Origin: a virus
Lineage: Duplodnaviria; Caudoviricetes
Strand: one strand, 5' to 3'
IMG/VR virus record: IMGVR_UViG_2786546892_000017
DNA length: 64,000 nucleotides
Each line of letters begins with the position of its first letter. Within the stretch, counting starts at the first letter, position 1. The notes below the pieces were generated by a model. That model was not told the origin of the DNA, ran no database searches, and saw nothing but the letters and a program-made list of their open reading frames with translations. Of the stretch, positions 8,455 to 42,029 are shown piece by piece. The position numbers were made by a program, and so were the translations under genes.

Positions 8455-10458
8455 CTAGCTGCATCCGGTCATCATTTGGCACGCGGTCCGCGTGGGGTAT
8501 ATGCCACCACCCACCGGCTGACAGACCCCCAACACGCAATTCCAGCCGATGCCACCGCTACTCGTGCTGCTCGTTGTTCCGTCCGCGCAGACTGCCTGGC
8601 AATCGAGGCTCGTCGCGTAGGGGCCGCCACCGGGGGTAGCCCCGGTAGGGCACAAACCGCCGACGAGGGTGGCGCAGAAGTCCGGGGACGGGCAGCAGTA
8701 ATACCCCGTCCCCGTGCTGGTACTGGTCGTCGTGGTCGTCGTCGTTGAAGTCGTGGTGCTGGTCGTCGTGCTGGTGGTCGTCGCGGGGGCAGTGCTGGTG
8801 CTGGATGTCGTGCTGGTGGTACTCGTCGTCGTACCGGGCAAGCACGGGGACGCGACGCACAGCGCTACGGTGGAGTAAGTCATCCCGGTGTTGATGTCGA
8901 TTGCGCCCGGGTAGTACATGTAGAGATCGGCCAAGCTGATGTGGCACTCGGCAAACGGACCCGAAACGGCCGACCCGTTGTACAGATAAAACGTGTAGCA
9001 TGTGTACGGCGGTGACGTACTGGTACTCGTCGTCGTGCTGGTCGTCGTCCCGGGCGGCGTACTGGTCGACGGATTCACGCACGGTGTAATAGCCCAGTCG
9101 CACGGGCCGGTAGGAGATCGATCCGGGACGCCGCAGACGCAAACGATGCCGGCGCCACTGCACGTTCCACTCACCACGCCATCGCACGTCGTTACCGGCA
9201 CGGGCAGGCACGAGCCGCTTATCTGGGCCCACCCGCCCAGCCCGTTGGGGCCCATAACACAAGTGCCACAGCAGATACACGGAGCGGGCGGTGGCGGCGG
9301 AACAGGTGTACTCGTACTGATAGGGCCGCAATACGGAGGGGTGTACGATCCGCCGGAGATGCAAGCCGTCGTCACCGCGGTAACGCACCCACCGGGCGAC
9401 ACCGGAGGCGGGCACGGCGGCCACGGGCAATCGCACCCTGTCCCGCACGCGAGTGTCTTTAGGTACTCCCCTGAACCGTTGTCCGTGAAAAGGCAGTAGT
9501 TTGGATTGCACCCGGGCGTACTGGTGCTGGTTGTGGTGGTGGTGGTGGTGTACGGCGGGGCCTGAAACTCCCAATAATACGGCTCGTCCGGCGCCGCAAT
9601 GACCAACGTCGGCGACACGTACCCCGCCCCGCCGGCCCCCAATACCAGAGTGGCCACCTTGCCACCCGCCACGGTTGCGGTGATCACCGCACCGGCACCG
9701 GCTGGGTCCGACACCGTCACCTGCGGGGAGACCGTGTAGCCACCAGTCCCGGGGTCGGTCAGCGTGACGGTCGAAATGCTCCCGCCGGAATTCGCGACCG
9801 TGCCTTGGGCCGTCGTCTGCCGATTCGTCGGGCTGGCCCAGAACCGCGCGTTAACCTTGCCGTGGGTGTCGATTACGGGGATCAGACCTGTCACCGGATC
9901 AGGCACGGGAACAGCGTTCCAGACCTGGACCGGATCGGATGTGTCCTGCCAGGTCGGGGCAGTGGCGGCCGTCACTAATTCTTGCGGCTGCCAACTATAA
10001 AGGAACCCACCGGAAGACGACGTGGAGCCCGTCACCCGCCCCCACATGCTGGCTTGCAGGATACTGAATTCCCACATGCCCGATTGCGTCGGCGACTTCC
10101 AGAACCACCCGTATAAGTTGCCCGGTTTGTCGTCAGTGAGCGTGTCGGTCGGGAACGGATCGCCCTGTACGGGGAACGACGAGTTGACCACCTCGTCCTG
10201 CGAATCGTCATCAATGAACGTGCCGTCCGCCTGCATCACCTGCGGCTGGTAGCTGTACACCTTCTGGGCTCCGGGGCCCGCCGCCTTCCCCGTCAATCTC
10301 CCCCACTGCCCATCGAGCATGTTGGGCAGCTGGATCGACCTCGCCCCGTTCGGACCTGGCACCTCCGAGAACGGCGCGGGGAACCGCAACCCCTCGACGG
10401 CCCGGAGGCGACGGTCGAGGGCGTCCAGGCGGGCACGGTCGGCTGCTGAGTCTGCCAT
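8455..10458 (-). CDS. Cys-rich, Thr-repeat virion (tail tip-like) protein
   Basis: likely start MADSAADR at 10458, 6 nt after a class II -10; poly-Thr/Ser linkers separate Cys-rich modules. Confidence 0.65.
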   Translation of the reverse strand: MADSAADRARLDALDRRLRAVEGLRFPAPFSEVPGPNGARSIQLPNMLDGQWGRLTGKAAGPGAQKVYSYQPQVMQADGTFIDDDSQDEVVNSSFPVQGDPFPTDTLTDDKPGNLYGWFWKSPTQSGMWEFSILQASMWGRVTGSTSSSGGFLYSWQPQELVTAATAPTWQDTSDPVQVWNAVPVPDPVTGLIPVIDTHGKVNARFWASPTNRQTTAQGTVANSGGSISTVTLTDPGTGGYTVSPQVTVSDPAGAGAVITATVAGGKVATLVLGAGGAGYVSPTLVIAAPDEPYYWEFQAPPYTTTTTTTSTSTPGCNPNYCLFTDNGSGEYLKTLACGTGCDCPWPPCPPPVSPGGCVTAVTTACISGGSYTPPYCGPISTSTPVPPPPPAPCICCGTCVMGPNGLGGWAQISGSCLPVPVTTCDGVVSGTCSGAGIVCVCGVPDRSPTGPCDWAITPCVNPSTSTPPGTTTSTTTSTSTSPPYTCYTFYLYNGSAVSGPFAECHISLADLYMYYPGAIDINTGMTYSTVALCVASPCLPGTTTSTTSTTSSTSTAPATTTSTTTSTTTSTTTTTTTSTSTGTGYYCCPSPDFCATLVGGLCPTGATPGGGPYATSLDCQAVCADGTTSSTSSGGIGWNCVLGVCQPVGGGIYPTRTACQMMTGCS

Positions 10459-10464
10459 AGGGGG

Positions 10465-10488
10465 AATGTGGGGTCCGCGGGGGAACAC
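10465..10488 (-). promoter_or_regulatory. class II promoter variant
   Basis: GTGTTCCC-N10-CACATT-N6-ATG. Confidence 0.7.
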
Positions 10489-10495
10489 TGTGAGC

Positions 10496-10521
10496 ATCCT
10501 AACGAGGTCCGTTGCCTGAGT
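10496..10521 (-). promoter_or_regulatory. class I promoter
   Basis: ACTCAGGCAACG-N8-TAGGAT. Confidence 0.75.
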
Positions 10522-10525
10522 GAGA

Positions 10526-10549
10526 TAGTGCCCACGAACCGGCCACATT
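10526..10549 (+). promoter_or_regulatory. class II promoter variant
   Basis: TAGTGCCC-N10-CACATT-N7-ATG. Confidence 0.75.
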
Positions 10550-10556: not shown

Positions 10557-11780
10557 ATGGCAGAACTGGAAAGCGAAGAAATCGGCGGCGACGACCTGTT
10601 CCCCGGCGTGCCCAGCTCGGGCTCCCCGGCGTCGTACATTTTGCCCGAGCCCGACCCCGCCGATAATTTCGACGCGGATACCAATTGGTCCGAGCAAGTC
10701 ACCGGCAACGAGGCCCCGGGCGGCGGGTCGTCTTTTAGTCGCGACGAGGGGAATGCGGGGTTGTACGGCTATGTACCGTACAACATGGTTCGGACCGCCG
10801 TAAGAGACATGGTCGGGTACTGTTGGGCCGACCAAGGGCCGCCTTGGCAACTCCACCGCGTCAACCCGTGGCAACACCCGGACTTCCCGTGGATGCGGTG
10901 CCAAAGTGTTCACGTGCAACCAGTTAACCCGTGTGGAGGTCCGAGTCAGGCGGACCCGACAACCAACGTGATCTGGACCAATTCGGCGGCCACGACGGCG
11001 CCTCAGTGGTCGAGCGCAGCGACGGCGGCCGTGCGCCCGAAGCGGCAGATCAACTACACGCGGGCCGCGTGTACCCTGAGCTTCAAGCCGTTCCCGTACG
11101 TCTTCTTGGAAGACGCGGATATGCAGGCGTATGGGTTGAAGGAGTATTATCGTAACTGTGATAGATTTTCTAGTATAGACCCGGCCCTCACGACGTTGAT
11201 GGCCTCGGCTACTCCGTTCATGACTTTTTTGGAGGGTCTGGACAACTCCACACCCGGCAAGCCGCTGACCAGTTTTACGCCGCCGCAGATGTTTCAAGGT
11301 GATTTGTACGAGCTGCTATGTCAAACGGATCTGGTCTTGGCATGGTACGGGGTGCCGTTGGATTTTGTCTGCGACCCCTACCTTCCGAGCAAAATCCTTG
11401 CATGTGTAGGCACGGTTAACATTAATGATCAGTGGCTGAACGTGTTTCCCAAAGGCACGTTGTTGCTGAATGCCCCACACATTAGAAAATCAATACAGAA
11501 CGTCTGGACAACACCGAACACGATTGGCTTCACAGTCGACGTGTTTTTCCCGTTCAAATTTTTCAATCCAACAGCTGGCGTTATGCTGGACTACCAGGAC
11601 GGACGAACCTCATCCCTGACTCAACCGGTTTTTAACGGGCACAATTTGTTCCCGCTCGGGACGACTGGCAGATACTATTCGGCCGCCAGAAAGAACAAGA
11701 ATACCCAGCAGGGAGATCCGACAAAGCCACTGATTTCATTCAGCGATTTCGACACGATGTTCGCACATGTGAAATCGTAG
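10557..11780 (+). CDS. putative tail hub/structural protein, inverted relative to other virion genes
   Basis: 407 aa W/P/N-rich; lies between tape measure and tail-tip genes; own class II promoter, leaderless. Confidence 0.55.
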   Translation: MAELESEEIGGDDLFPGVPSSGSPASYILPEPDPADNFDADTNWSEQVTGNEAPGGGSSFSRDEGNAGLYGYVPYNMVRTAVRDMVGYCWADQGPPWQLHRVNPWQHPDFPWMRCQSVHVQPVNPCGGPSQADPTTNVIWTNSAATTAPQWSSAATAAVRPKRQINYTRAACTLSFKPFPYVFLEDADMQAYGLKEYYRNCDRFSSIDPALTTLMASATPFMTFLEGLDNSTPGKPLTSFTPPQMFQGDLYELLCQTDLVLAWYGVPLDFVCDPYLPSKILACVGTVNINDQWLNVFPKGTLLLNAPHIRKSIQNVWTTPNTIGFTVDVFFPFKFFNPTAGVMLDYQDGRTSSLTQPVFNGHNLFPLGTTGRYYSAARKNKNTQQGDPTKPLISFSDFDTMFAHVKS

Positions 11781-17437: not shown

Positions 17438-19594
17438 TCACCGCCGCCCCACGATGTGCCTATCAAGCATTTCCCGGGCAGCCACCCCCACAGCACCACC
17501 CGTCGCTGCGGAGACGACGCCACTGACGACCGAGCCGCCTGTACCGCCGATCGCACGGCCCAACGCCGTGGCCAAGGGCTCGATGTATTTGCCTTCGACA
17601 AAATAGTCTCGTAATTCTTTGATCCGTACACCTATTTCCGCGGTGGTGGAAGCTATCTTGACCTCCGGCTTCTCGCCGCCAGCTTGTCCAATCCCGAAAC
17701 TTGACTCTCTGGCCTTGCGAATAACGTCATCGACAGATCCCGTCGAAACATTCCGAACGCCCTTACCCTCACTCGCCCCCTTCGTGTCGGGCGTTTCAAC
17801 ACTCTTGATGCCGAAGAATGCGTTCACGGAGTCGACAAGGTACTTGATGCCGTCTGCCACGGCTTTCACGAATCGCGCGAACGTCGAGGCGGCGCCCAGG
17901 ACGATGTTCTTCAGCAGGTTGAAGGTCGGGGCGAGTGCGTCCCCGATCGAGCTGACCAGCGGGCCGACGGAGTTGGCCAAGGCGCTGAGCGTGTCGCCGA
18001 TCGAGTCGAATGCGTCTCCCAAGGCGACCACCGATGGCTTGATCACGGCAATGATGCCGTCGAACACGCCCTTGACTATGCCGACGATTGACGTAAAGGC
18101 ATTGGCTACGCCGGAAATGATCCGCATCGCGATTCGCAGCGGAGCGGTCAGGGCGTTGACAAAAACCGATTGCATGTACGCGACGACCGGCTGGGCGACC
18201 GACATGATAGTATCGAATGCCGTCTTCATGGGAGACAAGAGGGCGGTGACGACATCCCCGATCGCCGTGACGACTGCCGATAGTACGTCAAAGACCACGG
18301 AAAGAGGGGCGAGGAGCATCGTCACAATTGGGGCCAGTGAAGCCAGAACGGACACAATCGGTTTGATGAGAGAGAGAACCGACAGGCTGAATTTCTGGGC
18401 CGCGACTCCGACCGTGATGAGCGTCGGGAGAATACTGCCGATGGCCGGGGCGATACTCTCGATCACGTTGACGAACAGGCTGATGGCGGTATCCACGTTC
18501 TTCAGGACCGCCCCGGCGCCGGTGGTCGCGATCTGAGTGAGCGTGTCGATGATGGGCGTGATGGCGGTGACGACGCGAGTGAACCCCGCCCCGAGTGCGT
18601 CGAGGACGACTTTCATCACCCCGGACAGTTTGCTGAAGATGGGTTGGAGTTCGGCCAGCGGTTTGGTTGCGGCCGCCATCACTCCCAATCCAACGGCAGC
18701 CCCCGCGATGCCGCCCAACAAAACCGAGAGTCCGCCCGTTGCGGTGCTAACAACTGATGAGAATACGCCAGTTACGGCGACAAGGGCGCCCATCCCCGTG
18801 GCCGCAGCCGCGAGTGCGGCCACCAACGCCTTGCCCTTTGGTGAAAGCGAGGCCAGTGAATCCGCCACGGCGCGCACAAGGGCAGTCGCGGAACCCATCA
18901 CGGGTAGCAACGCCTCGCCTATCGACGCGCGCAGGTCCAGCACAGCGAATTCAAACCCCTTCACGGCGGTCGGCGAAAACGCCGCGACGTAAGACGCGAT
19001 GTTGCTTTGGATGGAGCCAGTTAGCGAGTTGAGCCCGTTCGTGATCCCGCTGAAAAGTTGGGGCGCCCGTCCGAGCCCGGTTGTGAACTTCGAGTATTGG
19101 GTCGATACAACTCCGAGACCTTTTTGGAGCTGCGCCAGGGTGCCGGTTTGGGCTTTCACTTCGGCGTTGGCCTTGGTTCCTCCGGCCGTCAGTTTCTGCG
19201 TGTTGGCGACCAGCATCGCCATTTGTACGTTCGCAGGTTGCAATGCGGCGGCGATCGGCGTGACGTTCGCCAGCAGCTTCGCCACAGGGGGCGGGGACGA
19301 TTGGTTTGCTCCGGACCCAGAGGGAGTCGCACCCGATTGTGTTTGCGACCCGGTGCCCAGGCTCGGCGCCGCCTTGCCGACGTTGGCGAAGAAATTCGAG
19401 ATGGCCGATGTCAATTTGGCCAAAGGGTTCAAATTAGCAGCCGCGGACATGAGTTTGCCTAGCCCGTTGGCGAGCTGGACTATCCGCACATCGAGCGGGG
19501 TGGTGAGTCCCGCTAAAGGGTTCTTTGTCGACGACTGGCTCGGCGCAGGAGACTTCGGCTGGTTCGGTTTCGGTTGGCTTGGCAGCGGGGGCAT
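17438..19594 (-). CDS. tape measure protein
   Basis: 718 aa A/V/L/I-rich amphipathic helical repeats following tail tube and chaperones. Confidence 0.85.
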   Translation of the reverse strand: MPPLPSQPKPNQPKSPAPSQSSTKNPLAGLTTPLDVRIVQLANGLGKLMSAAANLNPLAKLTSAISNFFANVGKAAPSLGTGSQTQSGATPSGSGANQSSPPPVAKLLANVTPIAAALQPANVQMAMLVANTQKLTAGGTKANAEVKAQTGTLAQLQKGLGVVSTQYSKFTTGLGRAPQLFSGITNGLNSLTGSIQSNIASYVAAFSPTAVKGFEFAVLDLRASIGEALLPVMGSATALVRAVADSLASLSPKGKALVAALAAAATGMGALVAVTGVFSSVVSTATGGLSVLLGGIAGAAVGLGVMAAATKPLAELQPIFSKLSGVMKVVLDALGAGFTRVVTAITPIIDTLTQIATTGAGAVLKNVDTAISLFVNVIESIAPAIGSILPTLITVGVAAQKFSLSVLSLIKPIVSVLASLAPIVTMLLAPLSVVFDVLSAVVTAIGDVVTALLSPMKTAFDTIMSVAQPVVAYMQSVFVNALTAPLRIAMRIISGVANAFTSIVGIVKGVFDGIIAVIKPSVVALGDAFDSIGDTLSALANSVGPLVSSIGDALAPTFNLLKNIVLGAASTFARFVKAVADGIKYLVDSVNAFFGIKSVETPDTKGASEGKGVRNVSTGSVDDVIRKARESSFGIGQAGGEKPEVKIASTTAEIGVRIKELRDYFVEGKYIEPLATALGRAIGGTGGSVVSGVVSAATGGAVGVAAREMLDRHIVGRR

Positions 19595-20245: not shown

Positions 20246-20269
20246 AAGGTGTCAGTAAACAGGGAACTA
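20246..20269 (-). promoter_or_regulatory. class II promoter
   Basis: TAGTTCCC-N10-CACCTT. Confidence 0.8.
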
Positions 20270-22191: not shown

Positions 22192-22215
22192 AACGTGCCG
22201 CCGAGATGGGAACTA
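22192..22215 (-). promoter_or_regulatory. class II promoter
   Basis: TAGTTCCC-N10-CACGTT. Confidence 0.8.
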
Positions 22216-22692
22216 CGGACCCGTACGAAGTGCCTGCACGGAATAGTCGAGCGTCACCTTGAACACGTACCCAATCGTCTCGGTCCGCGTCGTGTCCGTC
22301 ATTCGCCGCTGCTTCGGTGGGAGAATGGTTTCAATCGTCTGGCCGGTTACGGGGAGGCTGGTACACCAGTCGAACCCTTGGGCCGCGTTGTACGCCCCGG
22401 CCCCGAACCGGATGCCCAAAGCGATGGCATCCGCCGCCGCAAGGCTCAGGGCATAGATTTCGAACGTGAAGTCTGTGGTCTCGATCACCTCGTACTCGAA
22501 GGTCTGGAAGGACGGGGTGGTACCGTTGTCCTTCAGGAGCACGTAGGGCGGCTTGTACGGGTTCCCGCTGCCGTCCTTGGCCGGCACCTCGTCAAAGAGG
22601 ATGGGGACGGGCGGACTCGGCGGTGACGGGGTGGCCACCGGGAGGGACTGGTAGAACTCGACGATGGCGCCGATGATGGAAGTGGATGGCAT
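22213..22692 (-). CDS. tail terminator/completion protein
   Basis: leaderless start MPSTSII; PPYVLL...FTFEIYA.S...A..IA pattern. Confidence 0.65.
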   Translation of the reverse strand: MPSTSIIGAIVEFYQSLPVATPSPPSPPVPILFDEVPAKDGSGNPYKPPYVLLKDNGTTPSFQTFEYEVIETTDFTFEIYALSLAAADAIALGIRFGAGAYNAAQGFDWCTSLPVTGQTIETILPPKQRRMTDTTRTETIGYVFKVTLDYSVQALRTGP

Positions 22693-22699: not shown

Positions 22700-22723
22700 A
22701 AGGTGACGGGGGGCGGGGAACTA
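22700..22723 (-). promoter_or_regulatory. class II promoter
   Basis: TAGTTCCC-N10-CACCTT-N7-ATG. Confidence 0.8.
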
Positions 22724-22981: not shown

Positions 22982-23362
22982 TCAATACACCGTCTGTACC
23001 AGTTTCACCTTCGCATACGGGGCAATATCCGTACTGATCATCGCCCCGTGCAAATCCACCGTCACCACGCGCAAGTACATGTTCTTCGCTTCTACGGGGT
23101 TCCCCCCCTGATTCAGCACGAACAGCCGGTCGCCACGCTGGATGCCCAGATAATTCGTCCACATCACGTGGCTGACCTGCCACCCTTCCGTCGACCCCTC
23201 GACCTGCTGTTCGCTGGTCGACTGCTCGCCGATGTAGCACTTGATCGACGCGATGCGGGTGGTCCACGCGAGTACGTTGCCCCCGTCCGCGTCCTGGGTG
23301 GACGATTCCATTTCGACGCGGGCGCGGTGAACGAGGAGGTCGTCGCCGATGGGGTCTGCCAT
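22982..23362 (-). CDS. head closure/head-tail adaptor protein
   Basis: TQDADGGN..W...IQRGDRL pattern of SPP1 gp16-like proteins. Confidence 0.7.
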   Translation of the reverse strand: MADPIGDDLLVHRARVEMESSTQDADGGNVLAWTTRIASIKCYIGEQSTSEQQVEGSTEGWQVSHVMWTNYLGIQRGDRLFVLNQGGNPVEAKNMYLRVVTVDLHGAMISTDIAPYAKVKLVQTVY

Positions 23363-23369: not shown

Positions 23370-23393
23370 AAAGTGGGGCGGGGGCGGGAACTA
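23370..23393 (-). promoter_or_regulatory. class II promoter
   Basis: TAGTTCCC-N10-CACTTT-N7-ATG. Confidence 0.8.
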
Positions 23394-23635: not shown

Positions 23636-23705
23636 ATCCTACCCGCCCCGTTGCCTGAGTCGTAATCCCGGCCGCCGTCACTCAGGCAACGCGCCCAGTT
23701 AGGAT
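23636..23705. promoter_or_regulatory. back-to-back pair of class I promoters
   Basis: - box-N7-TAGGAT (23636..23660) and + box-N8-TAGGAT (23680..23705). Confidence 0.8.
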
Positions 23706-24277: not shown

Positions 24278-25195
24278 CTAGCCCATCGCAATCACCCGCC
24301 GCTTCCGCCGAAACAACGCATTCGCCAACTGGTCGGTCAAAAACGGCGTCACCCCCGGCCCATTACTCCCCGTCTGCCGCTGGAACGGCGTAATACTGAA
24401 CGACACGTCCCCCAGGCTCCGGTTCCCCTTGTACCCCAAACCCAGATTCTGTTGAAACTTCCACCGCGCCCCGGCCTCCGCGTACATCGCCTCCACGATG
24501 TCGGGCGGCACGCACGGCCCCACGGTATACGTCACGCGGATGCACCCCCGCGCGGGCTCCAGCGTGTAGGCCAGCCGGTCCGGGGCAACTTGCCACCTGA
24601 AGTCCCAGACGGTCCGAATACGGCGGAGCAGGTTCGGCGGCTGGAAAAAGTAGTCCTGCCCGAGCGTCAGGACGGTAGAGACGCCGCACGGCGAGTCGAT
24701 CGCCACTTGTGGCGCCGCGGCGTAGTTCTCCCCGCCAGCCGTGAGCGTGATGCTCGTGACCACGCCGTTGACGACCGTGGCAGTCGCCGCCGCGTCCGCC
24801 CCGCCCCCGCCGACGAAGATCACATTGGGAATCTGGGTGTACCCACTGCTGCCGCTGACGAGTGTTACGCCCGTGACTACACCGTTGGTGACGGCTGACG
24901 TCGCTGTGGCCGCCGGCAGTCCCTGGAAGCCTTCTGGGGTCGTCCCGGCGTGCCCGTACCAGTCCTGACGCACTTCGAGCACGCTGGATGCGGGTTGCCG
25001 CAGGACGGCCGTATCCGTCCCGTAGCCCGACAGGTATTCCGTCGTGGTGACGGGCGTGGGATCGTACCCGAGATAGTCGACCACCGCAGCCTGCAGGCCA
25101 CGGAGGATCGACACCGCGATTTCGGGCGTGAGACTGGAGTCGAGGGCGACCAGCCGGGCCGGGTCGCACCAGAGGGTCGGGCACGCGGTTGACAT
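24278..25195 (-). CDS. head-tail connector protein with inserted tandem beta-repeat
   Basis: VDYLGY...IRVTYTVG..VPPDI..SLGDVSFS connector motifs; insert of two ATAT.V.NGVVT..TL..G.GY...P.V repeats. Confidence 0.7.
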   Translation of the reverse strand: MSTACPTLWCDPARLVALDSSLTPEIAVSILRGLQAAVVDYLGYDPTPVTTTEYLSGYGTDTAVLRQPASSVLEVRQDWYGHAGTTPEGFQGLPAATATSAVTNGVVTGVTLVSGSSGYTQIPNVIFVGGGGADAAATATVVNGVVTSITLTAGGENYAAAPQVAIDSPCGVSTVLTLGQDYFFQPPNLLRRIRTVWDFRWQVAPDRLAYTLEPARGCIRVTYTVGPCVPPDIVEAMYAEAGARWKFQQNLGLGYKGNRSLGDVSFSITPFQRQTGSNGPGVTPFLTDQLANALFRRKRRVIAMG

Positions 25196-25201: not shown

Positions 25202-25225
25202 AAAGTGTGACGGAGTAGGGAACTA
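25202..25225 (-). promoter_or_regulatory. class II promoter
   Basis: TAGTTCCC-N10-CACTTT-N6-ATG. Confidence 0.8.
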
Positions 25226-26036: not shown

Positions 26037-26062
26037 ATCATAGCGGGGTGCGTTGCCTGAGT
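26037..26062 (-). promoter_or_regulatory. class I promoter
   Basis: ACTCAGGCAACG-N8-TATGAT. Confidence 0.8.
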
Positions 26063-26870: not shown

Positions 26871-27160
26871 CCTACTTCCCATCCTTCCGCCCCACTCGCC
26901 CGGGCTTCGCCACAGGCTCCGGAGCATCCGCAGGGACAGGTGGAACGACAGCGGGCTGGGTATAGATCGTCTTGGCATCTTCTGATGCGACGGCCTTGGA
27001 TTGATTGGCCTTGTCGATCAACGTGGCAAGGTGAGCGAACGCGAATAACGCCGGCATCGGGGGCATCGTCGTTTCTCCATCGGGTAAAAGAAAAACCGCC
27101 GCCCACGGCTGGGGGACCGTAGACGGCGGCCGGGGGATGGATCTCGACCAAAAGGCCGCG

Positions 27161-29954: not shown

Positions 29955-31262
29955 TTATTTGGTGCGGGATTCGATCTTGCGAGTCTTGCGGTCGACCCGC
30001 TTGAGACCGGCGTTAAGTTCGCGGAGTTCGGCCGGAGTGAGTTCCAGACCCTTACTGACGGTCGCGGCCGGCTTGCGAAGGTCCGACACCTTGAACCGGG
30101 TCGGAAACCCCTTCCTGAACGCCTTGGACATCACGGCGCCGTCGTCCGTCATGGGCATCGTGTCGTCGGGCTCTCCGGTGTCGTTGTCCGGGGCTCCGAA
30201 CCCGCCATCGGGCCACACCTTCTGGGCGTCCACCTTGGCTTCTTTCGCCAACTCCTCGATCTGGTCTGCGACACCAGAGAGAAGTTCCAACCCTTCCTTG
30301 TCTTCCAGGTCCGGGCCGGCGACCGCGTCCTTGATCTGCTTGGCCGTGTCCATCAGTTGTTGGATCAGAGACATGACGGCCATGCCGGTCTTCTTCAGGC
30401 CCGGAGCGGCCTCTGCGTCCGGTTCCGTACTCGTCTCGTCGGGTTCGCCGGTATCCGCCGTGACATCGTCCGGGGTGTCTTCCGGGTCGGGCGCCGGATC
30501 GTTGTAATCGGCCATTGCTTTCCTCACGGGAACAGGGGTTTTGAGGTCGACCCCCGGAACCATCGCCCGGCGGGTAAATTGATCCAAATAAGGCTGGAGC
30601 GACTTCCGAATCAGCGGGCGAAGCGGCTCGCCGTTCAATCGCCCGGTGCCCGCGATCTGGAACGCCTTCTCGACTAACTCGGGGGCCAACACTTGCGCCC
30701 CGGGGTTGATCGGGTGCCGGCAGTGCGCCCATCCGTCGCCTTCCCACTCGTGGATCGCGTAGGCCGGGCCGCCCCGAATCAAGGACCGCCCGCGGACTTC
30801 ACTGTTGAGCGAGTGGGCTTCCAGGCTCACACCAGTCAAAATCCCGTGCTCAACCAATGCGAACGCCTGCGGGGCCACCTGGAGGCTTTCGTTGGGGTCG
30901 TACCGGCCGACCCGCCGGCCCTTCCCGTCGACGATCGCCATGTCCACGCCGTTCAGATCGCTCACCCGTTGGGCAAAGTGGGACAGGCCGATCGGGAGTT
31001 CCCATTCCTTGCCGTCGATCATTGCCATCCGGGTCGTCGGGACACCGTGGCCGATCGGAATGCCGTGCTCGTGGTTCACGCACGGCGTGTCAGCCCACCC
31101 GCGGCACCCGTCGGGGGCCACCAAGTCGCCCTCAAGGTCGACTGTGGGGTACGTCAGGACACTTGTGACCGTCATCCGCGACGGGTCGATCGCAGTCAGT
31201 TCCGGCAGAGCCTTCGTGAAGCGGTCGAAGGTCGCGCGGATCGCCTTGCGGGTGGCAACCAT
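29955..31262 (-). CDS. prohead protease/scaffold
   Basis: TVDLEGDLV, NHEH..PIG, G.LTGVSL, PINPGA; acidic C-terminal scaffold region. Confidence 0.8.
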   Translation of the reverse strand: MVATRKAIRATFDRFTKALPELTAIDPSRMTVTSVLTYPTVDLEGDLVAPDGCRGWADTPCVNHEHGIPIGHGVPTTRMAMIDGKEWELPIGLSHFAQRVSDLNGVDMAIVDGKGRRVGRYDPNESLQVAPQAFALVEHGILTGVSLEAHSLNSEVRGRSLIRGGPAYAIHEWEGDGWAHCRHPINPGAQVLAPELVEKAFQIAGTGRLNGEPLRPLIRKSLQPYLDQFTRRAMVPGVDLKTPVPVRKAMADYNDPAPDPEDTPDDVTADTGEPDETSTEPDAEAAPGLKKTGMAVMSLIQQLMDTAKQIKDAVAGPDLEDKEGLELLSGVADQIEELAKEAKVDAQKVWPDGGFGAPDNDTGEPDDTMPMTDDGAVMSKAFRKGFPTRFKVSDLRKPAATVSKGLELTPAELRELNAGLKRVDRKTRKIESRTK

Positions 31263-31266: not shown

Positions 31267-31611
31267 TTACCCTCCCGCCGGCCAAGGCCGCATTGCGTCA
31301 TTCGTGTACGACGACTGGCACCCCAGGCACCGGCACTGCCCGCCACCGCAGTCCATGCACTTGTCGCCACACCCGGGGCACTCGTAGGCCCCGCCCAGAA
31401 CCAAGTCCGGGGGCACTTCGGTCGTCCCGGGCGGCAGGGCGTGAGCGTGGTCGGCGATCGTCTGGAGATGCCCCGACTGAGCGATCCCGGCCAAGTGTTC
31501 GGTCGCCTCGTCCGGATCGGCACCGGGCGCAAAGAGCACGTCGAACACGTGGGCGAGCACGCGGCCTTCCGCGGGCGTTAGCGACTCGGCAGTGGGGGCG
31601 TCGATGGACAT
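31267..31611 (-). CDS. hypothetical protein with Cys-rich C-terminus
   Basis: leaderless start MSIDAP after class II promoter; CPGC..CMDC..CRCLGC. Confidence 0.55.
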   Translation of the reverse strand: MSIDAPTAESLTPAEGRVLAHVFDVLFAPGADPDEATEHLAGIAQSGHLQTIADHAHALPPGTTEVPPDLVLGGAYECPGCGDKCMDCGGGQCRCLGCQSSYTNDAMRPWPAGG

Positions 31612-31618: not shown

Positions 31619-31642
31619 AAGGTGGGGCGGGGGTGGGAACTA
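31619..31642 (-). promoter_or_regulatory. class II promoter (protease-capsid operon)
   Basis: TAGTTCCC-N10-CACCTT-N7-ATG. Confidence 0.8.
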
Positions 31643-31674: not shown

Positions 31675-31705
31675 CGCCCGGGTGTCTACCGTAGACACCC
31701 GGGCG
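31675..31705. repeat. 31-bp palindrome (15-bp arms), probable terminator/operator
   Basis: CGCCCGGGTGTCTAC-C-GTAGACACCCGGGCG between TIGR02996 gene and head promoter. Confidence 0.65.
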
Positions 31706-32808: not shown

Positions 32809-33150
32809 TCAGGGGTGGTTGTCACGAGGATGCCTCCCCGTCCAATTCTGGCGGCTTCCAACTCGGTTCGCGAAGCGGGTGCACCAGCCCTCTACCTTGT
32901 CGTGTTCATCGGTCGTTGACGGGTACACGAATCCGCCATTGGCCACATAAACACACCGGATATCGTCCGGAGGCCCAAACCCGCGGATCTCCACAATTTC
33001 TAACTTCGGCTTCGCATTGTTACCCCGGCCGTACAGGTAGCCGTAGAACCACCACCGCGTGCCGGGCATGCGAGGGAAGGCTTTCCGCCACGGGTTCATT
33101 TCGGCCACCGTGGGAAGCGGGCCGAAATCGTGTCCTTTCCAGACGGTCAC
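32809..33150 (-). CDS. hypothetical protein
   Basis: coupled (GTGA overlap) to Xre gene. Confidence 0.5.
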   Translation of the reverse strand: MTVWKGHDFGPLPTVAEMNPWRKAFPRMPGTRWWFYGYLYGRGNNAKPKLEIVEIRGFGPPDDIRCVYVANGGFVYPSTTDEHDKVEGWCTRFANRVGSRQNWTGRHPRDNHP

Positions 33151-33425
33151 TTCTTCTTACCTCCCTTGGGCGTCTCTCCGCCGAACATGAGCCACTGAAA
33201 CGGCACCCCATAGCCCTTCGCGATGTCGAACAAGAACTCTATCGTCGGGATGGCCGTCTTGCCCGTCTCGATCTTGTTCAAGTTGGCAAAAGGCACCCCG
33301 CACCGCTCCCCAGCCTCGCGTGCCGATAGCCCCGCATCCGCGCGGATGCGGCGTATCCGTTCCCTCACCCCTTCTGCCCACGCGAGCAATTCGGGGTTCA
33401 TCTCTTCTGGTCGTTTGCGTCCCAT
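33147..33425 (-). CDS. Xre-family HTH repressor
   Basis: ERIRRIRADAGLSAREAGERCGV...IETGK..PTIEFL..IAKGYGV..WL..G. Confidence 0.9.
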   Translation of the reverse strand: MGRKRPEEMNPELLAWAEGVRERIRRIRADAGLSAREAGERCGVPFANLNKIETGKTAIPTIEFLFDIAKGYGVPFQWLMFGGETPKGGKKK

Positions 33426-33431
33426 GAAAAC

Positions 33432-33493
33432 ATACTACCCAATATTTTTTTCTAGTCAACGATATTGACAACGTTGCCGGTATCGTCTACATT
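33432..33493. promoter_or_regulatory. divergent sigma70-type promoters with palindrome
   Basis: + TTGACA-N17-TACATT (33465..33493); - TTGACT-N16-TAGTAT 6 nt before repressor ATG; GTCAA-N5-TTGAC spans both -35 boxes. Confidence 0.7.
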
Positions 33494-37102: not shown

Positions 37103-37126
37103 AAGGTGCCGCGAAAGTGGGAACTA
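37103..37126 (-). promoter_or_regulatory. class II promoter
   Basis: TAGTTCCC-N10-CACCTT. Confidence 0.8.
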
Positions 37127-38248: not shown

Positions 38249-38274
38249 AGTCTAGCCGACCGCGTTGCCTGACT
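38249..38274 (-). promoter_or_regulatory. class I promoter (Clp-N gene)
   Basis: AGTCAGGCAACG-N8-TAGACT. Confidence 0.8.
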
Positions 38275-41200
38275 CACACCGTGACCACATCGGCCGCCGA
38301 CAACCCCTTGACGAACCTCAACGCGGCCCGCCTTATCCTTCGCCGCTTCGCCTTCATCTTCGGACCTGCCGCCGGAGGCACCAGCGTCCCGCCCACCGCG
38401 TTCAAGTTCGCAGACATGCCCCCGATAGCCTTTTGCATGTGAGCGGCCCCGGAGAGCAAGATGGGCGTCTCCTGGCCGTCCGCGTCCGAGAAGTGCAAAT
38501 GATGGGTCACTGCCTCCTCGTTGATCGTCCCCATCCGGCGGGCGTGTTCCGCCCCCAACCCCGGTTGGACATAGGCGATGGTCGCGTGCGGGACGTACTT
38601 CGCTCGGGTGTTCGTATGGGGGAGCAACTTCCGTAGTTTCCGGTTCAACCGCCTGATCCCGGCACCGTGAACTTCAGCGTACAGAATGTCGTGCTCCGGG
38701 TGGCTAAACACCCGAACTCGCCCGAGCCGGTATTTCACGGGCCTCGAAGTTCCCCCTACGGCCCATCGCACGTCTTCCGGGTCGTCCGTGTGCAGTCCGT
38801 ATAGCGTCGTGATGTGCGGGGAATCCTCCCGGCCGTCATCGAACGCGAGATGGTCGTCAGGGATGGAATCGGCGAGGGCCGTGATGTGGGACGCCAGGTG
38901 CCCCGGGAGTTTCACGTGGGTCGATGACAACGGCCGGTCGTCCGCGTCCATCCCCTTCTTCATGCGGGGCGGCAACGATCCCTTCCCGGCCGGGTTGCTG
39001 GGGCGGGGCGGCCAGTTCGCGGCCCCGGCCGGCTTGCCGTGCTTCGGCACCGGCACCCGCTTCGCCCGCACCGTTACGCCACCCTTGCTCGCCGAAACCG
39101 GACCGCCGGCCTTGATCTGTTGAACCACCTGGCCGGCCAAACTCTGGATCAGATTCGACAACAGAGCATGCGCGTGCGACTCGGAGATCCCGAGTTTCGC
39201 AGCCACCCGCCCCGCGTGCTTCGACGCCTCGCTCGCCGCCCAGACCGCCGGCTTGTGGCTCAAAATCTTGGCGTGCCGCGGGGTCAGCCGCTGGGCGACG
39301 GGCAACGCGCGAGACGCGACGGCCGGGGCCACATGCTTCGCCAAGGGCGCCACGGTCGGCGGGAGCGGGGCTGGCGTAAACTCCTTGGTCGCGTCGGCGT
39401 TGGGGGGCGGCGTTCGGCTGGCGGGTTGCGCAGGCGTCGGGCCGCGGCCAGCAATCAGCGGCGCCGCAGGTGCGGCTGGCGACGGTTTCTTTGTCGGTGT
39501 GTGGTGGAACGCGGCGTCGATGGCCTCCGAGTTATCCCTCACTGGTACCGAAGATTGTCGCGGGGGCGGCGTCGGGGCCGAAGGCGTCGGCTTGGCAGCG
39601 GATTGAGACGCAGGGGCAGGCTGCCCGGCCAACACCCGATGCTTCTCGGCCGCTTCCACGTGGCCCTTGACCGCCCCTTCGGCCCCGCTCACACCGGACT
39701 TCTCTTTAGCCGTCCGCTCGTGAACGGCGGCTGCGTCTTGGTGAATCTTTGGATCGGTCTTAGCCCCGGGCGGAATGAACTCGTACCCTTCTTTCCCCGA
39801 TTTGTCCCACAGGAGAGCCCCAGCCCCCCACTGGTTGCCGTTCTTGTCTCGCCCATCGCTGTTGATTACGACTTTCTTGTGCCCGTCATCGGTGTGGAGG
39901 ACTACCGTGTAGCCCTCCTTCGATTTTTGACGGACCAGATCTTCGACATGCTTCGTCGCCGCCTTCATATCGACGTAGCCGTTGCTGCCCGTGAATTGCT
40001 TCAACAACGAACCTTTGGTGATCGGTGCCTGGTGCGGCGTAGCAGTCGATGGCGACGGCTTGTCACCTTCCTCTGGCTCCACATGACCGGCCTGTGCCCG
40101 TTGCAGCTTCTCCGCAAGGTCGTTGCGATCGGACAATTTTTGAAAGTGTGCCTCACCGTGGGCGCCCCACTCTTCTTTTGGTTTGCGCACCCACCCCTTC
40201 ATTGACTCGTCAATGCCCTTATCGGCTACGGCCAGTTTTGACTTCAGGTCGGCCACGTGCGGCGAGTCTGGCTGAGCCCCGTGGGCCGCGATCGCCGCGT
40301 CCAGTTTCTTCCGTTGGCCTGGGTCTGTCACCTTGGCCCGAAGGGCTGCTGCGGCTTTCGGGTCTTTGGCCGCTGCTGCTACTTCGTCTTTATCGACGAA
40401 CTCCCCATGATCATCTCGCGGATGCTGGTCTTCGAACCCTTTCTGGAACGGATCGCCCGGCTTGATCCCCAACGCCTGCAACACCTCATCGGTGATGAGA
40501 CTGCGGGGGTCGCCAGTATCGGGGAGAGGTTCCTCGCCCTGTGCGTCCAACTCGGGGACACCGTTGGATCGATCGGGGGCCACAACGGGCGGGGCCGGTG
40601 GCGTGGGGGCGGCAGGTTGCCCGGGTGCGGGTTGTGGCTGGGTTGCGGCCTGGGCCTTGGCTTGGAGTCCGGCCACATACACCGACGGGGGGACCTCCCC
40701 TCCTTCCACGGGGTCCAGATCGATCATCCCCCGCAGTTCGTTCGTCATGATATAGCCAGACGACGCACCAGCATTCATTCGAGCCTGCTGGATATCGTGG
40801 TCGTCAATCTGTGGCGGGTCGATTTTTACGACGAGATGGTCTTTCTCCCAAAAACGCTTCGCCAGATGCTTGGTCAGTTGCTCGCCAATGTCCTTCACGA
40901 CCGGCCCGAGCCCGAGCGTGAAGAACTGCTTGAGTTTTGCGTAGAACGCCGCGTAGCTGTCCGCGGGCTTCAGCCCCGCCACGGTTGGGTCGGCGAGCCA
41001 CAGGGCACAGACCATGCCCATCATCCGGTCCCACCCGGACCCGTAGTCCATGTCACGGGCGCCAGGAGTGAGTAAGTTCGTAATCTTCACATCTTCGTCG
41101 CCAGCCAGCCCGATAATCCGATTTCCGCGAGCGCCGCTATACCGCTGCGAGACCTGAGCCAGTGCCGCCTCAACCGCCTCCTGGTTCGCCCCCGGCACAC

Positions 41201-41999
41201 TGATAATCGTGTCAGCCGACAGTCCGTTGTCCATCGACCGCTTCCAACTATCCGCGATCGCGTCGATCGTGTCGATCATCCTCGCCCCGGCTTGCATCTT
41301 GGGCCACGTCGCCCACTGATACAGCGGGTGAATCTCGTGGTCCCAGATGGCATCGCGCCGGTCGATCGTCCACGGACCACCCATCCCGAACGGTCCCACG
41401 ATCCCCGTCACGTAGTTCGTGACGTACCACCCACCGCACGGGTACTGGGTGCCCATCGGGATCTGATTCGTCGTCGGGGCAGGCACGATCCACAGGTCGG
41501 CCGGCGTACCAACCTCGCTCGGTCGCCAGGGCACAATCACTTCGCCCACGAGCTGCTTTTGGAGCGTCCACGACGAGAGAAATTGGCTGATCGTCTCGAC
41601 TTCGTTGGGGTCTTGCATCAGCCGGACGAGTTTGTGCTCGTCCGGGGCCGGCTGGTACTCGTGGTCCTTCGCCCCCGGCGCCCCAAACGCCTTCTTGAAC
41701 GGCACCCTCGAGGCCGTCCCCATCCCCTTCGGCCGCTGCTTCCGCTTCTGCTCCACCCGGACCGTGCAGCTCCCGACCGCGTGCATCAACGCACGGATAC
41801 AGAGGTACTGGACGTCCTTGTATTTGCTGGCCTGGGTGAGCCGATCAGAGAGTGCCGGCCCCGGGATGTCGCGGCTACGAATCTCCAGGACCGTTGACCG
41901 CGCCTGATTCGTGGCGGGTTGAGGAAGTCGTTGCGTCGGGTCGGGCAGCCCGAGAATGCGGGAGCGGCTGGATTCGGCGGACTGCGTAGTAGGTGCCAT
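38274..41999 (-). CDS. portal protein with long extension and C-terminal 2H phosphoesterase (Acb1/T4 gp57B-like)
   Basis: LMQDPN..ETISQF, RDMDY, MTNELRG..DLDPVEGG portal motifs; SPHITTLYGLH and YVPHATIAY 2H motifs. Confidence 0.85.
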   Translation of the reverse strand: MAPTTQSAESSRSRILGLPDPTQRLPQPATNQARSTVLEIRSRDIPGPALSDRLTQASKYKDVQYLCIRALMHAVGSCTVRVEQKRKQRPKGMGTASRVPFKKAFGAPGAKDHEYQPAPDEHKLVRLMQDPNEVETISQFLSSWTLQKQLVGEVIVPWRPSEVGTPADLWIVPAPTTNQIPMGTQYPCGGWYVTNYVTGIVGPFGMGGPWTIDRRDAIWDHEIHPLYQWATWPKMQAGARMIDTIDAIADSWKRSMDNGLSADTIISVPGANQEAVEAALAQVSQRYSGARGNRIIGLAGDEDVKITNLLTPGARDMDYGSGWDRMMGMVCALWLADPTVAGLKPADSYAAFYAKLKQFFTLGLGPVVKDIGEQLTKHLAKRFWEKDHLVVKIDPPQIDDHDIQQARMNAGASSGYIMTNELRGMIDLDPVEGGEVPPSVYVAGLQAKAQAATQPQPAPGQPAAPTPPAPPVVAPDRSNGVPELDAQGEEPLPDTGDPRSLITDEVLQALGIKPGDPFQKGFEDQHPRDDHGEFVDKDEVAAAAKDPKAAAALRAKVTDPGQRKKLDAAIAAHGAQPDSPHVADLKSKLAVADKGIDESMKGWVRKPKEEWGAHGEAHFQKLSDRNDLAEKLQRAQAGHVEPEEGDKPSPSTATPHQAPITKGSLLKQFTGSNGYVDMKAATKHVEDLVRQKSKEGYTVVLHTDDGHKKVVINSDGRDKNGNQWGAGALLWDKSGKEGYEFIPPGAKTDPKIHQDAAAVHERTAKEKSGVSGAEGAVKGHVEAAEKHRVLAGQPAPASQSAAKPTPSAPTPPPRQSSVPVRDNSEAIDAAFHHTPTKKPSPAAPAAPLIAGRGPTPAQPASRTPPPNADATKEFTPAPLPPTVAPLAKHVAPAVASRALPVAQRLTPRHAKILSHKPAVWAASEASKHAGRVAAKLGISESHAHALLSNLIQSLAGQVVQQIKAGGPVSASKGGVTVRAKRVPVPKHGKPAGAANWPPRPSNPAGKGSLPPRMKKGMDADDRPLSSTHVKLPGHLASHITALADSIPDDHLAFDDGREDSPHITTLYGLHTDDPEDVRWAVGGTSRPVKYRLGRVRVFSHPEHDILYAEVHGAGIRRLNRKLRKLLPHTNTRAKYVPHATIAYVQPGLGAEHARRMGTINEEAVTHHLHFSDADGQETPILLSGAAHMQKAIGGMSANLNAVGGTLVPPAAGPKMKAKRRRIRRAALRFVKGLSAADVVTV

Positions 42000-42005
42000 G
42001 CGGCG

Positions 42006-42029
42006 AATGTGCCGCAGAACGGGGAACTA
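42006..42029 (-). promoter_or_regulatory. class II promoter (portal)
   Basis: TAGTTCCC-N10-CACATT-N6-ATG. Confidence 0.8.

Follow-up and report, generated by a model that had tools for sequence, protein, structure and literature searches.

The window analysed here, a 64,000-nt stretch of a caudoviricete virus record, would be the core of a prophage-like element of ~85 kb with its own sigma-factor cascade and two promoter classes, and the first cistrons at seven of the 14 class II promoters are probably leaderless (we put the probability of this reading at about 0.7). Class I promoters would take the form TCAGGCAA-N10-TAGGAT, and class II promoters, TAGTTCCC-N10-CACNTTC, would head the structural and packaging genes. 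At 7/14 of the latter, the ATG of the first gene coincides with the predicted transcription start; these putatively leaderless first cistrons comprise the portal gene, a 114-aa open reading frame (ORF) before the scaffold and capsid genes, three head/neck genes, and two large tail-region genes. 70S ribosomes would presumably bind an mRNA beginning with AUG directly, with no need for a Shine-Dalgarno (SD) sequence; later cistrons and the remaining seven class II units would use ordinary SD sites. Of two phage sigma-like proteins, sigma-2 would read class II and sigma-1 class I.

Taken alone, CACNTT is a frequent hexamer, found 142 times in the window where 103 matches are expected, and it constitutes the downstream half of the bipartite class II motif. 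In the host genome (G000, 12.36 Mb), the exact pattern TAGTTCCC-N10-CACNTT occurs ten times, all ten on one strand of the prophage, and 200 other genomes of the host family hold zero or one copy each (one copy in 9/200). A weight matrix applied at ≥18 bits yields 14 class II sites in C20:150-240 kb and 25 in all 12.36 Mb, counts that are circular because the matrix was trained on these very sites. The hexamer carries A at position 2 and T at position 6 in 14/14 class II and 17/17 class I sites, a constancy that is in part a consequence of site picking. An A at +7 or +8 is present in 13 of the 14 class II copies, including six of the seven leadered ones, as expected for the preferred initiating purine. 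In both classes, 10 nt separate the end of the 8-mer from the hexamer and the hexamer-to-hexamer distance is 12 nt, so the sites, which appear to work like promoters, lack canonical sigma-70 spacing (-35 and -10 elements 17 ± 1 bp apart) and are not filed as canonical sigma-70 promoters. Since the box-hexamer geometry differs from 17 ± 1 bp, the class II +1 position is extrapolated. These features support a reading of CACNTT as the -10 part of a late promoter that is specific to the phage. The class II box also contains a TAG, which at 9/14 sites is the stop codon of a preceding ORF of 72 aa or more; the genes ending in this manner include proven ones (sigma-2, a 234-aa gene, and a 159-aa gene).

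The first-pass annotation had placed seven ATGs 6 or 7 nt past CACNTT, and all seven hold: the gap is 6 nt at 10458(-), 25195(-), and 41999(-) and 7 nt at 10557(+), 22692(-), 23362(-), and 31611(-). Class II sites with the ATG of a long ORF at +7/+8 thus number seven of 14, for which the binomial P(≥7/14) is 1e-8 at an ATG frequency of 0.0115 per position. The other seven copies have leaders of 16-50 nt, mostly with a GAGG-type SD. The absence of an SD from the seven starts, also proposed earlier, is confirmed, with GGAG, GAGG, and AGGA missing from -18..-5 in 7/7. When the one class I start of the same layout (ATG 26030) is included, an SD-like 4-mer precedes 0/8 leaderless-type starts versus 19/30 other phage starts (Fisher P = 0.003; phage gene starts beyond the seven are calls made in this analysis). 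Four of the seven ORFs (41999, 25195, 23362, and 10557) have no possible start codon ahead of this ATG, and none of the seven has an in-frame, SD-preceded alternative in its first 38 codons; the closest rule-positive candidates are TTG +39 (31611), GTG +66 (10458), and TTG +68 (10557).

Start-codon usage follows the same division. All seven leaderless-type class II genes begin with ATG versus 2/7 of the leadered class II first genes (Fisher P = 0.02), and ATG opens all eight leaderless-type candidates (seven class II and one class I). This exclusive use fits a requirement for a 5′-terminal start codon (PMC4633059), which Brock et al. reportedly described in 2008. A -10-like element lies ~6-7 nt before the start in 7/14 class II and 1/17 class I units. 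The earlier generalization that late genes are leaderless would hold, by gap, SD absence, and ATG, for half of the class II first genes and not for the other seven, which are leadered; nor is the layout exclusive to late genes, because the class I box at 26060 has an ATG at +7 as well. With a putative phage-specific -10 half, an ATG at the expected +1, no SD, uniform ATG use, and conservation in relatives, these units are best read as having a leaderless first cistron. Because the ATGs sit where transcription should begin, leaderless mRNAs probably carry the portal gene and other virion genes, and we infer that +1 is the A of the ATG.

The class II promoter TAGTTCCC-N10-CACATT at 42006..42029 (-) lies 6 nt from the ATG of the portal gene (38274..41999, -; 1241 aa), and its box TAG stops an upstream 95-aa ORF. 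The proposed presence of the portal gene among these units is borne out by matches to Phage_portal (2.4e-18) and phrog_2662 (8e-26); its product also has a C-terminal 2H (2_5_RNA_ligase2) domain. The promoter at 31619..31642 (-) has its ATG, 31611, 7 nt on, and the 114-aa Cys-rich ORF that it heads (31267..31611, -) is followed by a scaffold-like gene with an SD (ATG 31262) and by the gene for the major capsid protein (28447-29910); just upstream of this promoter is a terminator-like hairpin of 14 pairs, 10 of them G-C (31675..31705, -). The promoter at 25202..25225 (-) precedes, by 6 nt, a 305-aa virion-type gene (24278..25195, -) with PHROG head closure/structural matches over residues 86-172. 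At 23370..23393 (-), the box TAG closes an upstream 96-aa ORF, and the ATG 7 nt on opens a 126-aa gene (22982..23362, -) with a weak, below-cut-off Phage_HCP match. Similarly, the promoter at 22700..22723 (-) closes an upstream 85-aa ORF with its box TAG and lies 7 nt from ATG 22692, the start of a 159-aa gene (22213..22692, -) that ends at the TAG within the following class II box (22215); this start is backed by an orthologue of equal length, 159 aa, in locus L172.

The remaining two leaderless-type promoters are divergent. One, at 10465..10488 (-), has the weaker box GTGTTCCC and lies 6 nt from the ATG of a 667-aa gene (8455..10458, -), which is followed by an 835-aa gene (5937-8444). Its partner, TAGTGCCC-N10-CACATT at 10526..10549 (+), lies 7 nt from the ATG of a 407-aa gene (10557..11780, +), orthologues of which are second cistrons in loci L172 and L184, SD-led in L172.

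Among the leadered class II units, the promoter at 22192..22215 (-) has a 26-nt leader with a GAGGTG SD before ATG 22165, that at 3985..4008 (-) a 25-nt leader with GAGGTG before GTG 3959, and that at 37103..37126 (-) a 29-nt leader with GGAG before GTG 37073, the start of an 818-aa gene. The CATAAT variant at 4744..4767 (-), whose box TAG is the stop of sigma-2, has a 33-nt leader with GGGGGAG before TTG 4710. At 20246..20269 (-), an ATG lies 4 nt past the hexamer, and GTG 20208, 11 codons on with a GAGGG SD, is the likelier start. The CACTAT variant at 52367..52390 (-) precedes a 189-aa ORF and the large terminase gene (50101-51750); the ATG 9 nt past its hexamer opens an ORF of fewer than 45 aa. 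Within the late operons, ordinary SD sites precede the genes further downstream, among them those for the major capsid and tape measure. The PHROG and Pfam matches place genes for portal, major capsid, terminase, and tape measure behind the promoters, and these form a tailed-phage late module; a terminator-like hairpin of 16 pairs with a T-run follows the head operon (27094..27131, -).

The second motif, TCAGGCAA-N10-TAGGAT, occurs in 17 copies. The sole leaderless-type class I unit has the variant TCAGGCAA-N10-TATGAT at 26037..26060 (-), 6 nt from ATG 26030 of an 81-aa ORF (25785-26030, -). The class II promoter at 10488 has a strong class I promoter as its tandem neighbour, 31 nt further upstream (10496..10519, -). 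Another class I promoter (38249..38272, -) precedes a Clp_N-domain gene (ATG 38208) in the stretch that separates the portal gene from the 818-aa late gene. A further one, at 46255..46278 (-), heads a VWA/Cpn10 gene cluster that reaches the portal promoter with no strong terminator between, and that at 5418..5441 (-) precedes sigma-2 with a 44-nt leader, GGAG, and GTG 5373. Eleven more boxes start at 11788(+), 13036(-), 13426(-), 14667(-), 17389(-), 23682(+), 26622(-), 26868(-), 47932(-), 47955(+), and 54790(-), and one with an 11-nt spacer at 23658(-).

Sigma-2 (4765..5373, -; 202 aa), the candidate class II reader of the sigma-70 family, scores above the cut-off for Sigma70_r4 (26.8 vs 24.1 bits) and below it for TIGR02937 (35.6 vs the NCBIfam cut-off of 42.9 bits) and Pfam region 2 (12.2 vs 24). 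A profile of its 29 weak relatives matches the structures of RpoS (7e-36), SigA, FliA, and WhiG at 1e-24 to 1e-36. Its only paralogue, on C19, is 39% identical and is flanked by two TAGTTCCC-N10-CATCTT sites; no orthologue was found among the parts of the relatives' contigs examined. Sigma-1 (56848..57540, -; 230 aa), the candidate class I reader of the same family, exceeds the cut-offs for TIGR02937 (53.3 vs 42.9 bits, residues 64-222) and Sigma70_r4 (33.6 vs 24.1), with region 2 at 18.6 bits, below the cut-off of 24. The weight-matrix scan places no class I or class II site in the early region that holds sigma-1. The second motif and the two sigma-like genes suggest an early-to-middle-to-late sigma cascade. 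The phage also encodes a CsrA homologue just outside the window.

The host has a CCUCC anti-SD and a sharp SD peak (29% vs 5.7% in the control, 2228 ORFs). Its genome also has a TANNNT peak exactly 6 nt before the first start codon, at 45/2868 genes versus 7-25 at gaps 0-20. Metagenomic relatives with capsid proteins 51-56% identical carry a related motif, GACGCCGGTTCC-N11-CAnAnT, and seven of their 11 boxed copies have an ATG 6 nt on (8 nt in one). The copies that abut an ATG include those ahead of the L172 and L177 portal orthologues, whose products are ~29% identical to the portal protein of the window with the N-terminus aligned from residues 6-8. The box TGA of the relatives likewise ends an upstream ORF at several sites. 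The wider group does not share this layout throughout: the more distant relative L183 has a different motif, ~40-nt leaders, and SD sites.

Several other readings were considered. SD-less first cistrons might need a 5′-terminal AUG for translation and be silent on class I or read-through RNA, a lock, also proposed earlier, with middle and late genes sharing a strand. Class I promoters are interspersed with late units on the same strand, and at nine of 14 sites the upstream ORF runs into the class II box, so that a terminator would not fit. The number of terminator-like structures matches the shuffle expectation; strong terminators are rare (two stand out), so the portal gene, 25195, and 23362 are likely to receive read-through. 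In mycobacteria, moreover, a 5′-terminal ATG or GTG suffices and leadered initiation needs an SD (PMC4633059). However, this arrangement could apply to three or four of the seven genes at most and hence cannot be general: the 14-bp hairpin stands before 31611, no same-strand gene lies upstream of 10557, 22692 comes after another class II unit, and the strong class I promoter of 10458 would give an SD-less 30-nt leader. Read-through RNA of any origin would still yield the downstream late genes because their SD sites are ordinary. Within read-through RNA, pairing is slightly lower around these ATGs than around SD-led starts (mean unpaired 0.50 vs 0.40), and ribosomes ending at the TAG ~25 nt upstream could re-initiate. 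A lock is thus fairly unlikely. Such re-initiation could itself be the main route to protein, with the sites being promoters and the ATG-hexamer spacing a by-product of tight gene packing; the position of the box TAG and the TGA of the relatives agree with this. Yet three of the seven sites (10557, 25195, and 31611) have no ORF ending in the box, at a fourth (10488, before 10458) the box begins with GTG, which is not a stop, and packing alone cannot give a fixed 6-7 nt gap, ATG-only use, and an A at +7/+8 in leadered sites, which makes this account quite improbable.

It is highly improbable that the motif is no promoter, acting instead as a start-associated element at the RNA or protein level or as an operator for a phage regulator. 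Start-associated sequences occur in cluster K mycobacteriophages, the motif directly precedes start codons in half of cases, and its box-hexamer spacing is non-canonical for sigma-70; against this, 7/14 copies stand 16-50 nt away from the start codon and mostly have a separate SD in the interval, the hexamer keeps the -10-like A2 and T6, a parallel class with an obvious TAGGAT/TACAAT hexamer has the same architecture, and TTCC has the same sense as the anti-SD rather than its complement. If class II is a promoter, its reader may be a sigma factor of the host, or host RNA polymerase aided by a phage activator in a T4 MotA-like appropriation, rather than sigma-2. The box is centred near -26, the MotA box lies at -30, and sigma-2 is weakly sigma-like by single-sequence scores. 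This option is nonetheless unlikely, given zero exact sites outside the element in the host genome, a C19 paralogue that travels with the same box, and the profile matches of the sigma-2 relatives; we infer the sigma-2/class II and sigma-1/class I pairing. The leaderless reading would be unchanged if a host sigma or an activator read class II.

A more elaborate proposal, which we regard as quite speculative and doubtful, is a two-level late gating in an otherwise SD-dependent host. The late sigma would start transcripts at the AUG of first cistrons, the portal above all, SD-less AUGs would be silent on abundant middle read-through RNA, and the phage CsrA homologue could late in infection tilt ribosomes away from GGA/SD-led messages.

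Elements of this organization have counterparts elsewhere. In SPO1 (gp28, then gp33/34) and phiEco32 (gp36), sigma-70-family factors switch host RNA polymerase to middle and late promoters with ordinary spacing and leadered mRNAs, whereas both classes here are 8-N10-6 and half of the late ones adjoin an ATG. The lambda cI mRNA from PRM starts with AUG, a leaderless case reportedly described by Shean and Gottesman; it concerns one lysogeny gene read by host sigma-70, in contrast to the present set of late structural genes. In Deinococcus, a -10 motif ~6-7 bp before ORFs is validated as a promoter of leaderless genes with a spacing requirement (PMC12340547). The Deinococcus-Thermus motif described there is a host housekeeping TANNNT at about one third of genes, unlike the CACNTT with a phage-specific box found here, in a host with only the small gap-6 TANNNT peak (45/2868). 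In mycobacteria, a 5′-terminal ATG or GTG is both necessary and sufficient, with an SD needed for leadered starts (PMC4633059); this rule underlies the leaderless reading and the lock alike, but the organism is different, and the present eight candidate sites use ATG only and are known from sequence.

Leaderless late genes are already known from a few Thermus phages. Most transcripts of phiYS40 and Lalka27a are leaderless, and Lalka27a late promoters consist of TAGGGT with a conserved C at -25 (PMC3594737; bioRxiv 10.64898/2026.04.20.719267). Middle and late transcripts of both are described as leaderless. In those phages, however, the layout covers most transcripts and is widely used by the host phylum, whereas here it covers half of one promoter class in a mainly SD-using host, and this prophage has a strong upstream promoter box and phage sigma genes. 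A shift in IF2 and IF3 is reported for phiYS40, and the late tilt of ribosomes by the CsrA homologue, if true, would be its analogue.

The first-pass annotation described seven start codons in the window (ATGs at 41999, 31611, 25195, 23362, 22692, 10458, and 10557) as lying 6-7 nt after a CACNTT hexamer, and every one of these sites is as described. The bare hexamer is common in the window (142 matches vs 103 expected), and alignment of the seven upstream regions extends it to a two-part motif, TAGTTCCC-N10-CACNTT with an invariant C after the hexamer, which represents the candidate late (class II) promoter. The exact pattern occurs in 10 copies in G000, the host genome carrying the prophage, all on the minus strand of the element, as against 0 copies of a reversed-pattern control and at most one copy per genome in 200 host-family genomes (nine genomes with one). 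With a loose regular expression, the 12.36-Mb genome has 22 sites, 13 of them falling within C20:163033-216093, and a weight matrix at ≥18 bits finds 14 sites in C20:150-240 kb vs 25 genome-wide, counts that are circular because the matrix was trained on these same sites. All but one of the 14 fall in the window, the exception being located 670 nt before it. Scans of viral contigs return only single, chance-like matches, at no fewer than 118 loci for class II and at three loci for the second candidate promoter, class I; a search of genome G648 gives 100 matches, equal to the control level. Further class II-like sites are located at C9:238958 and C9:335882 on another host contig, as is a class I site (C9:238816).

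At 9 of the 14 sites, an upstream ORF (≥72 aa) terminates at the TAG that opens the class II box: 42027-42029, 23391-23393, 22721-22723, 22213-22215, 20267-20269, 4765-4767, 4006-4008, and 52388-52390 in the window, and C20:163031-163033 before it. Several gene junctions of about 28 nt thus consist of the promoter only.

Class II sites divide evenly by the position of the start codon. At seven of the 14, an ATG is found at +7 or +8 after the hexamer (binomial P(≥7 of 14) = 1e-8), where transcription would be expected to begin, and these leaderless-type starts open ORFs of 114-1241 aa. The remaining seven have leaders of 16-50 nt, and four of them (22215, 4008, 37126, and 4767) carry a Shine-Dalgarno (SD) sequence, GAGGTG, GGAG, or GGGGGAG, 6-14 nt before the start. 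At 20269, an ATG lies just 4 nt after the hexamer, and a GTG 11 codons downstream, preceded by GAGGG, is the likelier start. At 52390 (CACTAT), translation from the ATG 9 nt downstream would give <45 aa, and a 189-aa ORF starts 50 nt downstream without an SD under the rule used here (GGAG, GAGG, or AGGA within −18 to −5 of the start).

By this rule, none of eight leaderless-type starts (the seven class II sites plus the ATG at 26030, behind a class I promoter) has an SD, vs 19 of 30 other phage starts as called in this analysis (P = 0.003), which bears out the first-pass annotation on the lack of an SD at these positions. Its broader proposal that the late genes are leaderless would apply at only half of the class II sites; the other half are leadered, and the internal late-operon genes are all SD-led, including those for the capsid, the tape measure, the scaffold-like protein (ATG 31262), and proteins of 143, 251, 162, and 275 aa. 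The scaffold-like gene (29955-31262, minus strand) has a GGGAGGG SD, and ahead of it a Cys-rich, zinc-ribbon-like 114-aa ORF (31267-31611, minus strand) occupies the leaderless position.

Five lines of indirect evidence agree in pointing to a +1 at the ATG; two of them, a host TANNNT peak and the validated spacing in Deinococcus, are described further below. Thirteen of the 14 class II sites have an A at +7 (eight sites) or +8 (five sites), among them six of the seven leadered ones, where no ATG constrains it. The start codon is ATG at 7/7 leaderless-type class II starts vs 2/7 leadered class II first genes (P = 0.02), and at four of the seven leaderless-type sites it is the first start codon of the ORF. 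None of the seven has an SD-led in-frame alternative within its first 38 codons, the nearest rule-positive candidates being codons +39 (31611), +66 (10458), and +68 (10557). Third-position GC rises at the leaderless-type ATG. Two other readings of the junction were considered. The GGGG in the discriminator was rejected as an SD, as it lies 1 nt from the ATG. A sigma-28-like register, with +1 after the ATG, was rejected because it would leave the conserved ATG unexplained and because no SD-preceded in-frame start exists in the first 38 codons. As sequence anatomy, the motif, spacing, and start layout are well supported; leaderless expression of these late genes is, judged from sequence, moderately well supported.

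The layout recurs in distant relatives. A megablast search of phages with 12 kb detected no close DNA relatives, a search with the capsid protein alone gave no match in genome contigs or viral contigs, and 400 genomes of the host's phylum held no capsid match at 1e-10. Within the host's order, the host's own family (f1) has capsid relatives of 31-39% identity, mostly one per genome, in 86 of 185 further genomes, as against 0 of 15 in family f105; this distribution suggests a distant prophage lineage that is widespread, or else a domesticated element. Metagenomes contain about 80 capsid homologues with 42-60% identity, and an alignment of 33 homologues was used to retrieve 15 metagenome loci and one MAG locus. 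The window's own motifs are absent from all of these loci (no weight-matrix site ≥16 bits). A cognate motif, found only by listing gene-upstream sequences, has the form (T)GACGCCGGTTCC-N11-(C/G)A(C/T)(A/G)(A/C)T and shares the GTTCC core and spacing of the window's AGTTCC-N11-CACNTT; its TGA likewise serves as the upstream stop at several sites.

Eleven boxed copies of this motif occur in four relatives (L172, L177, L184, and L181), a count that leaves out an unboxed match inside a gene (L172 18169) and a variant-box match (L182 155). In seven, an ATG lies 6 nt (six cases) or 8 nt (one case) downstream and opens an ORF of 174-714 aa; the other four are leadered. One more ATG-abutting copy is found at the contig edge of L174, and L173 has GTTCC-N12-GAAAGT-N7-ATG before its scaffold-like gene. 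Two of the leaderless-type genes, in L172 and L177, are portal orthologues with 29-30% identity to the window portal (E 2e-50 and 9e-54), and their residues 6-8 onward align with it from its second codon. A late promoter adjoining the portal ATG has thus persisted despite extensive divergence. The first cistron behind the late promoter can change between relatives: the scaffold-like gene is itself leaderless-type in the relatives, 6 nt after the hexamer, whereas in the window the 114-aa ORF holds that place, and a 407-aa gene that is leaderless-type in the window is a second cistron in L172. In L183 (= L225; 21.5 kb, 52% GC, 46% capsid identity), which is more distantly related, a different repeated motif, CCTCTT(T/C)CTCAGAGAA, occurs in 13 copies, 11 on the gene strand; downstream of the copies checked lie leaders of about 40 nt that contain an SD.

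The window corresponds to G000:C20:163704-227703, on a 614-kb contig of the 12.36-Mb, 20-contig genome. It encodes a tailed-phage module comprising the portal (38274-41999, minus strand), major capsid (28447-29910), tape measure (17438-19594), and large terminase (50101-51750), along with ThyX, a dCTP deaminase-like protein, a DNA methylase, Cpn10, a Clp_N protein, and two sigma-70 region 4 proteins. The 1241-aa portal protein has a C-terminal 2_5_RNA_ligase2 (2H phosphoesterase) domain (residues 1034-1150, Pfam 5.8e-10). Phage-type genes extend past the window on either side, with PhoH and a papain-like peptidase at C20:156-160 kb and Prim-Pol, an AAA_25 helicase-like gene, a CsrA homologue, and Bro-N at C20:231-240 kb, after which come IS transposases and a PAS protein. 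Because of these flanking genes, the window is treated as belonging to a prophage-like element of about 85 kb; the ORFs that were scanned include no integrase. The 114-aa CsrA homologue (G000:C20:236713-237057, minus strand, = L222:9010-9354; Pfam 8.7e-18), which lies outside the window among the early-type genes Prim-Pol, AAA_25, and Bro-N, is a possible modulator of SD/GGA-dependent translation, and phage-encoded CsrA homologues are mentioned in published work. Within the window, an HTH_3 (Cro/CI-type) gene (33147-33425, minus strand) adjoins divergent sigma-70-like promoters (33147-33493), TTGACA-17-TACATT on the plus strand and TTGACT-16-TAGTAT on the minus strand, and may form with them an immunity region set between late units.

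Class I promoters were defined by k-mer enrichment as TCAGGCAA(CG)-N8-TAGGAT, with hexamer variants TACAAT, TAGAAT, TAGAGT, and TATGAT; 17 of the 21 sites in the genome at ≥18 bits lie in the element. They head small non-structural units interleaved with late ones (Clp_N, VWA-Cpn10, and an antirepressor-like gene), and an ATG is found at +7 in just 1 of the 17 (box at 26060). Two back-to-back divergent class I pairs (23634-23705 and 47909-47978) form near-palindromic 70-nt blocks. Both classes have an 8-N10-6 architecture, in which the box-hexamer gap is 10 nt rather than the canonical 17 ± 1 and the 8-mer is about 5 bp closer than a canonical −35.

The element encodes a sigma-70-family protein and a second, putative one. 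Sigma-1 (56848-57540) scores above the TIGR02937 cut-off and lies in a right-hand region without class I or class II sites. Sigma-2 (4765-5373), for which Pfam region 4 is the only cut-off passed, sits behind a predicted class I promoter (5441) and is nearly an orphan, with three representatives at E ≤1e-10 among 1.84 billion. At 1e-8, 200 family genomes contain no relatives besides G000's own two copies, and a word-based search returned sigma-2 only; a profile of its weak relatives matches RpoS, SigA, FliA, and WhiG structures (1e-24 to 1e-36). In G000:C19:334182-336120, two leadered TAGTTCCC-N10-CATCTT sites flank the one paralogue of sigma-2 (C19:335532-336041, 39% identity). We infer a pairing of sigma-1 with class I and of sigma-2 with class II: the host polymerase would make sigma-1, which would read class I promoters and so lead to sigma-2, which in turn would read class II promoters.

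The host, whose 16S rRNA ends in GGATCACCTCCTTT, uses SD sites: SD 4-mers, with a sharp peak at −12, occur at −18 to −5 of 29% of 2228 long host ORFs with crude start calls, vs 5.7% at a control position. TANNNT lies exactly 6 nt before the first start codon in 45 of 2868 ORFs (long ORFs, first ATG or GTG, contigs C1, C2, C4, C5, C14, and C17), compared with 7-25 for gaps of 0-20 nt. This peak indicates that the host has a small gene set of leaderless-type layout and suggests that roughly 1% of its genes are leaderless.

The first-pass annotation further proposed a translational lock, in which SD-less leaderless-type AUGs stay silent on read-through RNA so that middle and late genes can share a strand. 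Class I and class II units do lie on one strand. Terminator-like hairpins are overall as numerous as in shuffled sequence, and just two strong ones (31705-31675 and 27131-27094) are conspicuous. Given the upstream ORFs that end in the box TAG, it is likely that transcripts read through into the portal gene, 25195, and 23362, and in mycobacteria an SD is required for leadered initiation (PMC4633059). If true, the lock would explain how middle and late genes are interleaved on one strand with almost no terminators. However, one of the two hairpins directly precedes the class II promoter of 31611, no gene lies upstream of 10557 on the same strand, 22692 is preceded by another late unit, and 10458 has its own strong class I promoter 31 nt upstream. 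SD-led downstream cistrons would moreover be translated from any transcript, and in folded read-through contexts the leaderless-type ATG regions are slightly more open than SD-led starts (mean unpaired 0.50 vs 0.40, P = 0.05). Termination-reinitiation from the TAG about 25 nt upstream is a candidate alternative. A regulatory lock is weakly supported and rather unlikely.

Leaderless expression itself, if true, would give a set of virion genes under a phage-specific promoter class in a mostly SD-reliant host, with the layout conserved at the portal gene across very diverged relatives. The arrangement would amount to a small, transferable cassette in which an upstream box containing a stop codon is followed at 10 nt by the hexamer and, 6-7 nt further on, by the ATG. 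It also allows start codons to be called precisely in phages of this group, which are poorly annotated, and provides biochemists with two candidate sigma/promoter pairs whose spacing is unusually short. Limited literature searches found no description of a promoter class that is specific to a phage sigma factor and abuts start codons in a host that uses SD sites, and phiKZ and AR9 reportedly show no leaderless transcripts. In Deinococcus, a 6-7 bp spacing between motif and ORF has been validated experimentally for leaderless genes (PMC12340547) and is the same as the hexamer-ATG spacing of the phage. Leaderless late transcripts are documented for the Thermus phages phiYS40 and Lalka27a (PMC3594737; bioRxiv 10.64898/2026.04.20.719267), and the present element, if its late genes are indeed leaderless, would show that such expression is not confined to Thermus phages.
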